Made by a program: the position numbers | From: Escherichia coli | Lineage (GTDB): Bacteria; Pseudomonadota; Gammaproteobacteria; Enterobacterales; Enterobacteriaceae | Strand: one strand, 5' to 3' | DNA length: 64,000 nt | Assembly: GCF_024298765.1 (NCBI RefSeq) | Contig: NZ_CP101210.1 | Shown: positions 24,001 through 30,000 of the stretch, in pieces | Layout of the letters: each line of letters opens with the position of its first letter | Position numbering within the stretch: position 1 is the stretch's first letter

Positions 24001-27000
24001 TGCCGGGCAACAAGGGAGACCGTCATTCCCGGTTCAAAACTCTGCTGAACAATAGCGATCTTTTCCTGTGTAGTACGCCGTCTGCGTTTCTCCGGTCCTA
24101 AGACATCAATCATCTGCTCTCCAATGACTAGTCTAAAAACTAGTATTAAGACTATCACTTAAATAAGTGATATTGGTTGTCTGGAGATTCAGGGGGGCCA
24201 GTCTACTGAATGAGCGAAATGTGATTTACCTTCTTTTCTGTTCATTGTAAATTCCCTCTTTGCTAACGCAAATCATTATCATTACGCCTTTGGCAAAGGG
24301 AAATTTATGAAGAACAAATATATCATTGCTCCGGGCATTGCCGTGATGTGTTCTGCAGTTATATCATCAGGTTATGCCAGTTCTGATAAAAAAGAAGATA
24401 CGCTTGTTGTTACTGCCTCCGGGTTCACTCAGCAGCTCAGAAATGCCCCGGCCAGTGTCTCAGTCATTACTTCAGAACAACTGCAAAAAAAACCGGTTTC
24501 AGATCTGGTCGATGCAGTAAAAGATGTTGAAGGGATTAGTATCACTGGTGGGAATGAAAAACCGGATATCAGTATACGTGGTCTAAGTGGCGATTACACG
24601 CTGATTCTGGTCGATGGACGACGTCAGAGCGGTCGGGAATCCAGACCAAACGGCAGCGGCGGTTTTGAAGCCGGATTTATCCCTCCTGTGGAAGCAATTG
24701 AACGCATTGAAGTGATCCGTGGCCCTATGTCTTCCCTGTATGGTTCTGATGCCATCGGAGGGGTCATTAATATCATAACCAAACCAGTTAATAACCAAAC
24801 ATGGGATGGCGTACTTGGACTTGGGGGGATTATTCAGGAACATGGGAAATTTGGTAACTCAACCACAAATGACTTCTATCTGTCAGGCCCATTGATTAAG
24901 GATAAACTTGGTCTTCAGCTATATGGAGGAATGAACTATCGCAAGGAAGATAGTATCTCTCAGGGAACACCGGCAAAAGATAATAAGAATATAACGGCAA
25001 CGCTCCAGTTTACTCCGACTGAAAGCCAGAAGTTTGTTTTTGAATATGGAAAAAATAACCAGGTGCATACATTAACACCTGGTGAGTCTCTCGATGCCTG
25101 GACTATGCGGGGAAATCTTAAACAACCAAACAGTAAAAGAGAAACGCATAATTCACGTAGTCACTGGGTAGCAGCATGGAATGCCCAGGGCGAAATACTG
25201 CATCCTGAAATTGCTGTTTATCAGGAGAAAGTTATTCGTGAGATTAAATCAGGTAAAAAAGATAAATATAATCATTGGGATCTTAATTACGAGTCAAGAA
25301 AACCGGAAATAACCAACACAATCATAGATGCAAAAGTGACGGCATTTCTGCCGGAAAATGTACTGACCATCGGAGGTCAATTTCAGCATGCAGAGCTCCG
25401 TGATGACTCAGCCACGGGTAAAAAAACGACAGAAACACAGTCTGTTTCAATTAAACAGAAAGCTGTTTTTATAGAAAATGAATATGCAGCAACGGATTCT
25501 CTCGCCCTGACTGGAGGACTGCGTCTCGATAATCATGAAATCTATGGCAGTTACTGGAATCCAAGATTGTACGCTGTTTATAACCTGACCGATAATCTCA
25601 CACTCAAAGGGGGGATCGCAAAAGCATTTCGGGCTCCTTCAATTCGTGAGGTGAGTCCTGGATTTGGAACACTGACGCAGGGTGGTGCCTCTATTATGTA
25701 TGGAAACAGGGACCTGAAACCGGAGACCAGTGTAACCGAAGAGATCGGTATTATTTATAGTAATGATAGTGGTTTTTCGGCGAGCGCGACGCTGTTTAAT
25801 ACTGATTTTAAAAATAAGTTGACCAGTTACGATATAGGTACAAAAGATCCAGTCACCGGGTTAAACACTTTTATTTATGATAATGTAGGTGAGGCAAATA
25901 TCAGAGGGGTGGAGCTTGCAACTCAGATTCCTGTGTATGATAAATGGCATGTATCTGCAAACTATACATTTACTGACTCTCGTCGAAAAAGTGATGACGA
26001 AAGTCTCAATGGCAAGTCGCTGAAAGGGGAACCTCTGGAAAGAACTCCCAGACATGCAGCCAATGCAAAACTGGAATGGGATTACACTCAGGATATTACA
26101 TTTTATTCATCTCTGAATTATACGGGAAAACAAATCTGGGCAGCACAAAGAAATGGTGCTAAGGTTCCCCGCGTTCGTAATGGATTCACATCTATGGATA
26201 TTGGTCTAAATTACCAGATTCTGCCAGACACGCTGATTAATTTTGCCGTTCTTAACGTCACAGACAGAAAGAGCGAGGATATCGATACCATTGATGGTAA
26301 CTGGCAGGTCGATGAAGGACGCCGTTATTGGGCTAATGTAAGAGTATCCTTCTGAGAGTATATAAAGACAACCTGAGGCCGTGAGCCTCAGGTACCAGTG
26401 TAGTAATCAGTAATGTCAGTTTCCAGGTTGTAATGCTTTTAATCTTGATTAAAATAATCTTAATAATTTAAACTTGTTAAATATCGATGATTTTAATTTG
26501 AGAGCGTTCAGAATTCTGTGTCACGTTAAAAATTCTACAGCGTCATCACATTATTCAGCCGCCCTTCAAAATAAATGGCTAACTGCGACAATGTCAAATT
26601 CCAGCTTTGGATGGGCATTGTCCATTTCTCCTGTGCGTTCATCAGTCCCAGATAAAGTAGCTTCAACAGGCTGTTTTCATTCGGGAAAGCACCTTTAGGT
26701 TTTGGTCAGTTTCCTGAACTGGCGGTGGACTGATTCTATCGCGTTGGTTGTGTAGATCACCTTGCGGATATTCGCCGGATAGCGGAAGTACGCTGACAGA
26801 TTTTCCCTCTTGCGGCGCCAGGACTGGAGCACCACCGGATATTGCTGCCCCCGTTTCGCTTCCAGCTCATCCAGCGCCGTTTCCGACACCGCACGATACA
26901 CTGGCTTCAGGTCGGCCATGAACGCTTTATGGTGTTTTGACGCCACATATTTAATCGAGTTACGTATCTGGTGAATGACGCACAACTGTACCTCTGTCTG

Positions 27001-30000
27001 CGGATAAATGCTGTTTATCGCTTCAGGGAAGCCGGTCAGCCCATCCACGCAGGCAATCAGAATGTCTTCAACGCCACGGTTTTGCAGATCACTTAATACT
27101 GACAGCCAGAAGTTAGCGCCTTCGCTTTCCGACAAATACAGGCCCAGGACTTCTTTTTTGCCTTCCAGATTCAGCGCCAGTACGGTATAAACTGCCTTGC
27201 TCTGATAACACCCATCTTCGCGGATTTTATAGTGAATGGCGTCCAGCCAGACGAAGGGATAAACCTTTTCCAGCGGGCGCTGCTGCCACTGTTTTAACTC
27301 AGGAATGACTTTATCGGTAACCGCACTGATGGTAGCCGTGGAAACACTGAAGGCATATAAATCTTCGATCTCCCGGCTGATATCCTGGTAGCTCATCCCC
27401 AGCGCGAACAGGCGAATGATCTTGCGCTCGAGCTCATCAGACAGCGTGGTCTGGTGCTTCTTCACCAGTTGGGGTTCAAAATAACCATTACGATCACGTG
27501 GAGTTGCCAGCTCAAAGCTGCCAGTCGGGGCTTTAATGGTCTTTTTTCCGGAACCATTTTTACGATTGACTTCAAAATCCTGAGCCAGATGGGAGTCGAG
27601 TTCAGCGGCCAGAGCGGTTTCTGTTAACTGTTTGATTAATGGCGTTAGGATACCATCCTTGCCGGTTAATGCTTGGCCGGACTGAACCGCCCCGGAAATC
27701 CTGGAGACTAAACTCCCTGAGAAAGAGGTAAACAGGATGACTAAAAATACTCGTTTTTCCCCCGAAGTCCGTCAACGGGCAGTTCGTATGGTTCTGGAAA
27801 GTCAGGGCGAATATGACTCACAATGGGCGGCAATTTGTTCCATTGCTCCAAAGACTGGCTGTACGCCGGAGACTCTGCGTGTCTGGGTTCGCCAGTATGA
27901 GCGGGATACCGGGGGCGGAGATGGAGGGCTCACCAGTGCTGAACGTCAGCGTCTGAAAGAGCTGGAACGTGAAAATCGTGAACTGCGCCGCAGCAACAAT
28001 ATCCTTCGCCAGGCTTCCGCTTATTTTGCGAAGGCGGAGTTCGACCGCCTCTGGAAAAAGTGATGGCACTGCTGGATAAGCTGCGTGAGCAGTACGGGGT
28101 CAGACCGGTATGCAGTGAACTGCATATTGCCCCGTCAACGTATTACCACTGTCAGCAACAGCGACATCATCCTGATAAACGCAGTGCACATGCACAGCGC
28201 GATGACTGGCTGAAGAGAGAGATACAGCGCGTATACGATGAAAATCATCAGTGTACCGTGTGCGTAAAGTCTGGCGCCAGTTGTTACGGGAAGGAATCAG
28301 GATGGCCAGATGTACAGTGGTGCGCCTCATGGCGGTTATGGGACTTGCCGGTGTTCTCCGGGGTAAAAAGGTCCGCACTACCGTCAGCCGGAAAACCGTT
28401 GCCGCAGGTGACCGCGTAAACCGTCAGTTCGTGGCAGAACGTCCTGACCAGCTGTGGGTGGCTGATTTTACTTACGTCAGCACATGGCAGGGCTTCGTCT
28501 ATAGTGGCGTTCATCATTGATGTATTTGCCGGATATATCGTGGGGTGGTGGGTCTCATCGTCTATGGAAACGACATTCGTGCTGGATGCGCTGGAGCAGG
28601 CGTTGTGGGCCCGCCGTCCGTCCGGCACCATCCATCACAGCGATAAAGGCTCTCAGTATGTGTCACTGGCCTATATGGAGCGATTAAAAGAAGCAAAACT
28701 GCTGGCATCAACAGGGAGTACAGGCGACTCGTATGACAACGCGATGGCGGAGAGCATCAATGGTCTTTACAAAGCGGAGGTAATACACCGTAAGAGCTGG
28801 AAAAACCGTGCAGAAGTGGAACTGGCCACACTCACGTGGGTGGACTGGTATAACAATCGACGATTGCTGGGAAGGCTGGGCCATACTCCTCCGGCAGAAG
28901 CAGAAAAAGCTTATTATGCTTCCATCGGAAACAATGATCTGGCAGCCTGAGTTCACAGATAAAACACTCTCCAGGAAACCCGGGGCGGTTCAGGACTGGA
29001 GTGCCTTAAGCGCTTTATCGAAATCGAAGGGTTGGGACATGTGTCATTCCTTTTTGGTTGTATATTACTGGAATGACACAGAATTTCTAACACTCCCTTT
29101 AATTTAGGTTTATTACTATTATTATACTTACTCTCTTTTTTACATGACCTCAATCTTTACGATTATATTCACTCTATCTTTACACATTCCATTACTCTTA
29201 TCCTCATCCAATTATATTCATGTCCTTCTCTAATCTTCCTTGTCACCATTATCATAATATCCACTTCTTCCCTCATTCAATCATAATTACTGTAATTCAT
29301 ACGTTACTCAGATAAGTTATTCTCTACAGCTACGCTATTGTTGATATCCATCTGTTCTCATTTTCAGTGAAACAGTAATTGATTTTAATTTATCCATCAT
29401 GAACTGTATTTGCTTAACAATGATTGTTTATCTGAAGTGTTTTAACTATTCTGGTTGGAAACAATTTCTCTGTCATCAAAGATTAACTGAATGTTTACTC
29501 TTTGATAAGGTATCCATGGTTCCGTCATGTTTAACAGCGCAGGATAAACAACAGAATTAACAGAGTGAATTTCTGATTATATTTGTTGCCGGTTGTATTG
29601 TTTAAGGTACTGGGTGAAAATTATTCATCCATTGTATGTTGTCTTATGCTATCGTGTGTCGTTAACGTTCATATCCTGGAAAACAGATTGAATAAGCGCG
29701 TGTGAGTTTATTGTGGTGACCTTATAAACGTTTTTTCAGACTCACTGAGAGCAAATTTACAAATCATGAGCTTATAGTTGTAATATGTTTCCTAACCGCC
29801 TGGCAGCGGGATTACAGTTCGTATTTTTCTGTATTTCACTGTGTTGTATTGAATCTGTATTTTCTTCGCACCTCGTTTATCTCATCTCTATAGACAATGC
29901 CATCAGATAACTCATACCCTTCAGCACAACGCTGTGTGTCGTTAATAATCCGTCGTATCCATTCTGTTACAGCATGCCTGATAAATACCATCTGTAAGTT

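Follow-up and report, generated by a model that had tools for sequence, protein, structure and literature searches.

The 64,000-nt stretch of Escherichia coli DNA analysed here (the window) contains a broken IS629-type element inside a broken IS256-family element, adjoining the iron-receptor gene ireA on its downstream side. This locus is very probably a two-level insertion sequence (IS) fossil, a passive passenger of the ireA module in a genomic island of E. coli, and no evidence against the nested architecture was found. As read from the sequence, neither element is able to make a full-length transposase, and RefSeq marks both transposase genes as frameshifted pseudogenes. Nested, broken ISs near ireA are an ordinary and already known fossil, and an "ireA:IS256:IS3" arrangement appears in Table 4 of a survey paper (PMC12108210). 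The whole window is 99.94% identical to APEC O78:H4 strain E12049 (32001–96000), and it matches APEC IMT5155 only at positions 12139–32981 and 59105–64000.

The outer, IS256-family element occupies positions 26500–29097 on the minus strand, 144 bp downstream of ireA, and measures 1284 bp once IS629 and one copy of its target duplication are subtracted. It is flanked by two copies of the 8-mer TTTAATTT, one proximal to ireA (26492–26499) and one distal (29098–29105). Its 3′ portion (26500–27682) runs from codon 17 to the stop and includes the terminal inverted repeat at 26500–26525, while its 5′ portion (28993–29097) holds the inverted repeat at 29072–29097, the leader, the ATG (29040–29038) and codons 1–16. 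The IS629-group element (27683–28992, plus strand, 1310 bp) sits between them in the opposite orientation to the host gene, with ends TGAACCGCCCCGG... and ...CCGGGGCGGTTCA and a GGAC duplication on either side (27679–27682 and 28993–28996). Codons 1–16 of the host gene (MSQPFDFDKALKALQS) are found at 29040–28993 and codon 17 onwards (GQALTGKDG...) from 27678; the host frame resumes exactly because the insert and one duplication together amount to 1314 nt (438 × 3), or 438 codons. The initial annotation had proposed both the nest and the exact resumption of the frame, and both are borne out, the former by the element boundaries and the two sets of duplications and the latter by this codon count and by an uninterrupted copy in strain 2009C-3133. 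The coordinates given there, 26530–29040, span the coding region, whereas the element including its inverted repeats extends over 26500–29097. As drawn by annotation pipelines, the IS256 pseudogene overruns the IS629 boundary by 17 nt and lacks its first 16 codons, which lie beyond the insert.

Several features place the outer element in the IS256 family. Its repaired transposase scores 394.8 bits against NCBIfam NF033543 (IS256 family transposase; cut-off 150), and PF00872 (Mutator-type) is present in close homologues. A length of 1284 bp and an 8-bp duplication on both flanks agree with the ~1.2–1.5 kb and 8–9 bp expected of the family, and the inverted-repeat arms of 22 nt are imperfect (82% complementary). 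The motifs WLDAI, CVDGL and NAIES, which we take to carry the catalytic D, D and E residues of IS256 transposases, align with those of IS1414 and of an intact relative in E. coli GF130 (WP_097752252.1). The GF130 copy has the same first and last 40 nt as the window element, with 93.3% DNA identity overall and 96.7% identity to the repaired protein. The element belongs to an Enterobacterales lineage: a multicopy element in Yersinia enterocolitica is 94% identical, and the nearest relative named in RefSeq is ISSod5, at ~71% protein identity. A search for an intact copy at ~99% identity found none, the nearest intact copy being 93% identical; plasmid copies that are 99% identical are frameshifted too and are interrupted by IS2.

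IS1414 and ISEc39 share family, similar size and gene layout with the window element, but protein identity is only 44.1% and 47%, respectively. ISEc39 was rejected as a name on the basis of the latter value, obtained with the RefSeq-named copy in CFS3273. The 44% identity of the transposase to ISAba26, which is itself 72% identical to ISEc39 (PMC4345345), agrees with this rejection. IS1414 was rejected likewise, 44.1% lying far from the isoform level of ~90% DNA or 95% protein identity, and literature searches for an ISfinder name of the element gave nothing usable. Other strains carry a genuine IS1414 (GPEC673) or ISEc39 (CFS3273) within the fossil or close to it, and in MSHS 133 ISVsa5 has landed in it.

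The comparison with IS1414 in the initial annotation, which stands as a family-level analogy only, extended to the overlapping EAST1 toxin gene, astA, and to a stop codon in the corresponding frame. The position of astA was taken from a genuine IS1414 copy and then mapped onto the window element, where the equivalent stretch (26907–27023, minus strand, +1 frame of the transposase) contains no toxin ORF. This frame reads KR*TAFIRRQRYSCASF..., with the stop at the codon-2 position, no ATG and one of the four cysteines kept. Since the intact GF130 relative shows the same pattern and is also without a toxin frame, the stop is a lineage trait rather than a sign of decay. It could be argued from the shared IS family, and from an overlapping frame that is open for 35 codons and has the same end as astA, that the element is IS1414 or IS1414-like and once carried an EAST1 gene that has since been inactivated. 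We regard this as scarcely credible given the distance from IS1414, the missing start, early stop and single conserved cysteine, the GF130 pattern, which implies that the lineage never had the toxin, and the fact that RefSeq names true IS1414/astA where present, but not here.

Unlike the GF130 copy, the window gene is interrupted by IS629, shifts frame at codon 343, is 12 bp shorter and has changes at two conserved tryptophans. The frameshift near the 3′ end, as had been claimed, is due to an extra base at 26697 (T on the coding strand; ACC-T-AAA) after codon 343, so that a TAA follows at once. The final 53 codons are now in the +1 frame (KGAFPNENSLL...NNVMTL*; 26535–26696, minus strand, stop at 26535) and can be aligned to the C-terminal end of the intact relative. 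The initial annotation was right about the frameshifts and missed two other kinds of damage, namely a 12-bp in-frame deletion (KEAA lost; junction at 26885/26886), revealed by alignment with other ireA-linked copies, and the replacement of two conserved Trp residues by Arg relative to the intact relative. The extra base at 26697 is common to all four ireA-linked copies examined (window, 2009C-3133, CFT073 and ST69), and because the uninterrupted copy has the same frameshift, this lesion is older than the IS629 insertion.

The inner element was compared with the O157:H7 copy ("IS1203 family" in RefSeq), used as the reference instead of the Shigella sonnei type; against this reference its DNA identity is 95.8%, where at least 90% was taken to define the IS629 group. 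Sub-types of IS629 diverge by 4–5% among themselves, and target duplications are 3–4 bp (PMC3271280). The window copy has in common with IS629/IS1203/IS3411 its 1310 bp, terminal repeats, orfA-orfB layout, ALIL pseudoknot and 4-bp duplication; both terminal repeats are the same as in the intact O157:H7 copy. Its closest relatives (98–98.5%) are plasmid and ExPEC copies and not those of O157:H7. Roughly 4200 E. coli genomes have an IS629-group copy. In this group orfA and orfB are joined by programmed −1 frameshifting, and the window copy keeps orfA, the pseudoknot and the A-rich slip region next to its interrupted orfB. The intact orfA (27737–28063, plus strand, 108 aa) has an N-terminal match to NF033516 and shares 103 of its 108 residues (95.4%) with the O157:H7 OrfA, and the frameshift-stimulating ALIL pseudoknot of the IS3 family (28018–28134, plus strand) is matched over its full length by Rfam RF01497 (117.6 bits; gathering score 50).

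Unlike intact IS629, the window copy has an orfB with two 1-nt indels, as the initial annotation had reported, and is non-autonomous. The gene (28060–28950, plus strand) is broken into three frame segments, 28060–28419, 28251–28520 and 28504–28950, that match NF033516 profile positions 92–148, 152–234 and 236–369 in order. Comparison with intact copies identified exactly two lesions, a deletion of G at 28250/28251 and an insertion of A at 28503, and virtual repair of both yields an open OrfB of 296 aa with 95.3% identity to the O157:H7 protein. The possibility that the two indels compensate each other was rejected, as the shifted frame stops at 28419, before the second indel. An OrfAB transposase is predicted to be impossible because the indels part the segment with the first catalytic Asp from the rest.

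Empty sites are available for both insertions. CFS3273 has one copy of TTTAATTT where the IS256-family element would lie, and at the ireA site of 2009C-3133 the IS256-family element is uninterrupted, with contiguous CTCCAGTCCGGCC (target ...CAGTCCGGCC...) and the same ireA and YagK/YfjJ neighbours. Such uninterrupted copies are rare (eight chromosomal records) and lack the 12-bp deletion of the window copy. The sequence comparisons show the following course of events. An IS256-family element of ~1296 bp entered AT-rich DNA at a point 144 bp past ireA, duplicating TTTAATTT; a 1-nt insertion, traced through the uninterrupted copy, then truncated its transposase at codon 343. The 1310-bp IS629-group element followed, inserting after codon 16 in the opposite orientation and duplicating GGAC. 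The window lineage has also lost 12 bp in frame from the IS256-family gene, probably as the last step. The clean duplications, the two empty sites and the predicted lack of any full-length transposase support the view of the initial annotation that successive transpositions left an inactive scar. Both ISs would be incapable of self-movement while retaining intact ends, and only two activities may be left, namely passive movement of the IS629 copy with the aid of a helper copy and a role as homology in recombination; the latter is seen in CFT073-type and ST69-type strains, where an IS629-group copy at this position links ireA to different DNA.

A 1510-bp probe consisting of IS629 and 100-bp flanks is matched at ≥99% identity in 202 records from diverse hosts; in all 60 of the matches listed, the nested stretch is 100% identical and at the same site, and many of the 202 records have a single place matching the probe under a strict E-value limit. 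This distribution leaves virtually no room for the frameshifts being sequencing or assembly errors in elements that are really intact. Long-read assemblies do commonly carry single-base indel errors, but here about 200 independently sequenced complete genomes share the matching stretch, the same indels recur in plasmid copies from other studies, and the IS256-family frameshift is common to strains from at least four lineages. The uniformity of the nest also makes it improbable that the locus is not dead and that, where helper copies exist, an end-intact IS629 continues to be moved in trans or appreciably excised. The terminal repeats identical to those of the intact O157:H7 copy, the intact orfA and pseudoknot, the presence of the allele at several loci and the arrival of other ISs in the fossil (ISVsa5 in MSHS 133 and IS1414 in GPEC673) would all fit such activity; the unchanged site and sequence among the matches, and the single matching place in many records, argue against it. 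The eight uninterrupted records, because they differ by the 12-bp deletion, look ancestral and not like products of excision.

The initial annotation held both elements to be decayed, and both are broken, but decay of IS629 at this site is unproven. The double-frameshift allele also occurs on the IncF plasmid pRIVM_C039205_2 and on the A1.S1.126 chromosome, at unrelated sites, so the indels may not have arisen at the ireA site. IS629 could instead have been defective on arrival, having moved with the help of a functional IS629 transposase supplied in trans, or gene conversion could later have replaced its central segment; we consider this possible but less likely than not. Both indels and a linked G-to-C change are found in the pRIVM_C039205_2 and A1.S1.126 copies, and a single plasmid locus occurs with an intact copy (pKSE-C30_1), with the extra A only (pBEC1-S17-ESBL-09_1) and with both indels (pRIVM). 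Recurrent parallel mutation is unlikely, as both indels are outside long homopolymer runs, and IS629 copies are clearly mosaic. A clean target duplication, however, is found only around the window copy and around none of the other carriers of the allele, and these missing duplications would equally fit outward spread from the ireA site by recombination. More tentatively still, the defective allele might persist as a parasite that depends on functional copies and spread between IncF plasmids and chromosomal islands, with ireA as one landing site, and its route may be trans-mobilisation, gene conversion or both.

Recombination at the IS629 position is evident in related islands. At the ireA-IS-pap junction, PAI I(APEC-O1) and the CFT073 island share ireA and the frameshifted remnant of the IS256-family element with the window, and an IS629-group element sits at exactly the same nucleotide. 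In CFT073, however, an intact IS629-group copy adjoins papG-II on the side away from ireA, where the window has the first 105 bp of the IS256-family element. Over the 600 bp nearest to ireA the CFT073 and ST69 copies are the same but for one base; beyond this they diverge, and their right flanks are the pap operon and a nuclease gene, respectively. On this sequence comparison, the IS629-group copy at the ireA position in CFT073-type strains is a recombination junction and not a simple nest. The IS629 alleles at the ireA position differ by 3.6–5.5% and the junction base varies (GGAC| versus GGAT|), so that a single ancestral IS629 insertion is not proven.

The nest is of little importance alone: in the pathogenicity islands of E. 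coli, nested and decayed ISs are commonplace, and the pseudogenes described here were already annotated. Its exact junctions and the 12-bp deletion are nonetheless stable, lineage-informative markers with which the ireA module can be traced across ExPEC and APEC, and the IS629-group position is a breakpoint that joins this module to pap or other DNA in CFT073-type islands.

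Downstream of the TonB-dependent receptor gene ireA, which ends at 26355 and is followed by a GC-rich hairpin (26371-26393), the window carries one insertion sequence inside another. The outer, IS256-family element (26500-29097, minus strand) starts 144 bp past the ireA stop, is flanked on both sides by the 8-mer TTTAATTT (26492-26499 and 29098-29105), and has imperfect terminal inverted repeats, with 22-nt arms that are 82% complementary. Within it lies a 1310-bp IS3-family element (27683-28992, plus strand) with the termini TGAACCGCCCCGG... and ...CCGGGGCGGTTCA, bordered at either side by GGAC; removal of this insert and one GGAC leaves an IS256-family element of 1284 bp. 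These boundaries and flanking duplications bear out the initial annotation, which had described IS629 nested in an IS256-family transposase gene whose frame resumes across it: the frame is continuous from the ATG at 29040 across the insertion junction (KALQS joined to GQALTG), and because insert plus duplication amount to 1314 nt, a multiple of three, it stays in register in the raw sequence too. The IS256 pseudogene feature in RefSeq (26535-27699) extends into the IS629 terminal repeat by 17 nt (27683-27699) and lacks the first 16 IS256-family codons (28993-29040), an artefact of annotating nested elements.

The inner element shares 95.8% identity with an O157:H7 copy labelled 'IS1203 family' by RefSeq and 94.5-98.5% with the remaining copies aligned. 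Since IS629 sub-types lie 4-5% apart, IS1203 and IS3411 are regarded as IS629 isoforms, and IS629 target duplications measure 3-4 bp (PMC3271280), the original name is correct at the level of the isoform group. For the outer element, IS1414 (44.1% protein identity) and ISEc39 (47% identity) were ruled out. Among intact E. coli relatives, WP_097752252.1 of strain GF130 comes closest, with 93.3% DNA and 96.7% protein identity and identical element ends. Multicopy relatives with about 94% protein identity occur in Yersinia enterocolitica, and ISSod5 (71%) is the nearest relative named in RefSeq.

In the IS256-family gene, an extra base at 26697 converts ACC-AAA into ACC-TAA and the remaining 53 codons run in the +1 frame to a stop at 26535; this is the frameshift reported near the 3' end. 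Alignment with three other ireA-linked copies revealed that it is common to all of them, including one without IS629, and that 12 bp are absent from the window copy only (junction 26885/26886). Two conserved Trp residues are also replaced by Arg relative to an intact 400-aa relative. Aligned with five further copies, of which those from CFT073, ST69 and O157:H7 are annotated as intact, the IS629-group element shows exactly two indels, a G missing between 28250 and 28251 and an additional A at 28503, matching the two orfB frameshifts noted initially. Positions 92-148, 152-234 and 236-369 of the IS3 transposase profile are matched consecutively by the three orfB pieces. Once both indels are virtually repaired, OrfB is uninterrupted over 296 aa and shares 95.3% identity with the O157:H7 protein. 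OrfA (27737-28063, plus strand) is intact, as is the ALIL pseudoknot (28018-28134; 117.6 bits). Frameshifts in both transposase genes, which RefSeq annotates as pseudogenes, support the view that the locus is an inactive scar.

Related genomes preserve earlier states. In CFS3273, ireA is followed by a single uninterrupted TTTAATTT, the empty site of the IS256-family element, and 2009C-3133 carries this element in the same position and gene neighbourhood, already frameshifted and free of IS629. IS256-family insertion was thus followed by its frameshift and then by IS629 insertion, in line with the successive transposition events proposed; the 12-bp deletion would be later, in the window's lineage, if IS629 inserted only once. 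A search with a probe across the IS629 target revealed 21 genomes in which it is uninterrupted, with 11 such records at 99% identity (8 chromosomal, 3 plasmid), and the interrupted state occurs in about 260-290 genomes. When IS629 is compared together with 100 bp on either side, 202 records show at least 99% identity, and all 60 matches listed reach 100%; the nested IS629 comes from hosts such as chicken, pig, dog, cattle and human.

Other strains show further insertions here. CFS3273 harbours an intact, genuine ISEc39, another IS256-family element, about 85 bp nearer ireA than the site left empty there (L019 1676-2990, equivalent to window ~26410-26417); the AT-rich stretch 3' of ireA appears to be a recurrent landing zone for elements of this family. 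In MSHS 133, ISVsa5 (IS10-like) with a 9-bp duplication occupies orfA of the nested IS629 (L006 2981-4309, equivalent to window 27871-27879), giving a three-level nest. The IS256-family element is also plasmid-borne, in E. coli G6/7 and DETEC-S792 (L021, L022), where it is 99% identical across the probe, likewise annotated as frameshifted, and interrupted by IS2 at a different position.

The astA gene of a genuine IS1414 copy lies in the +1 frame of the transposase gene (nt 716-832), and its product is MPSTQYIRRPASSYASCIWCATACASCHGRTTKPSLAT. The equivalent stretch of the window element (27023-26907) translates as KR*TAFIRRQRYSCASFTRYVTRLNMWRQNTIKRSWPT*; a toxin ORF sought in this frame meets a stop at codon 2, as the initial annotation had it, and lacks a start codon, with one of four cysteines. 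The frame is nearly the same in the intact GF130 relative, so that this IS256-family lineage never carried the EAST1 toxin. The toxin-bearing element does occur in the same fossil in another strain: in GPEC673, a genuine IS1414 whose astA ORF is intact lies, with an 8-bp duplication, inside the IS256-family element, directly upstream of the fossil's start codon (L005 4150-5464, equivalent to window 29041-29048).

Both orfB indels and a linked substitution also occur at unrelated sites, in the A1.S1.126 chromosome and IncF plasmid pRIVM_C039205_2; at the latter locus, other plasmids have either an intact allele or one with just the +A insertion, and mosaicism among IS629 copies is plain. The ireA locus may be where the lesions arose before spreading, or they may have originated elsewhere and arrived by trans-mobilisation or gene conversion.

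The window, 99.94% identical to 32001-96000 of APEC O78:H4 strain E12049, is a composite island that starts beside yicL and contains CP4-type genes, ireA, hlyE, fec and pgt operons and a LacI/PTS/transketolase sugar module. An apparently intact IS2 (22874-24204; annotated by RefSeq with a programmed frameshift but not flagged as a pseudogene) lies upstream of ireA, its end 102 bp from the start codon, and replaces about 580 bp present in CFT073, so that the promoter region of iron-regulated ireA is partly replaced in the window's lineage. A direct repeat of ~930 bp (32053-32981 and 59143-60065; 89% identical; YagK/YfjJ and ProQ/FinO-like genes) flanks the hlyE-fec-pgt part and suggests assembly from two related modules. 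By the annotation of near-identical E12049, a second IS graveyard (~47460-51500) holds, back to back, an IS3-family gene, IS30, ISEc31 and an IS66-family tnpC, of which all but the intact IS30 are truncated.

The original observation is thus confirmed and its interpretation supported, with corrections. The nested feature, mentioned in passing in earlier literature (PMC12108210), is an ordinary one, involving two known kinds of insertion sequence whose pseudogene annotation was already in place. In CFT073 and ST69 this exact nucleotide position is occupied by intact IS629-group copies that differ from the window copy by 3.6-5.5%, by the junction (GGAT versus GGAC) and by the far flank (papG-II in CFT073, a nuclease gene in ST69). 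Within their 600 bp nearest ireA these two copies are only a single base apart, and further on they diverge, a pattern that is the signature of recombination inside the IS629-group element. The scar thus serves as a junction at which island modules are reshuffled.
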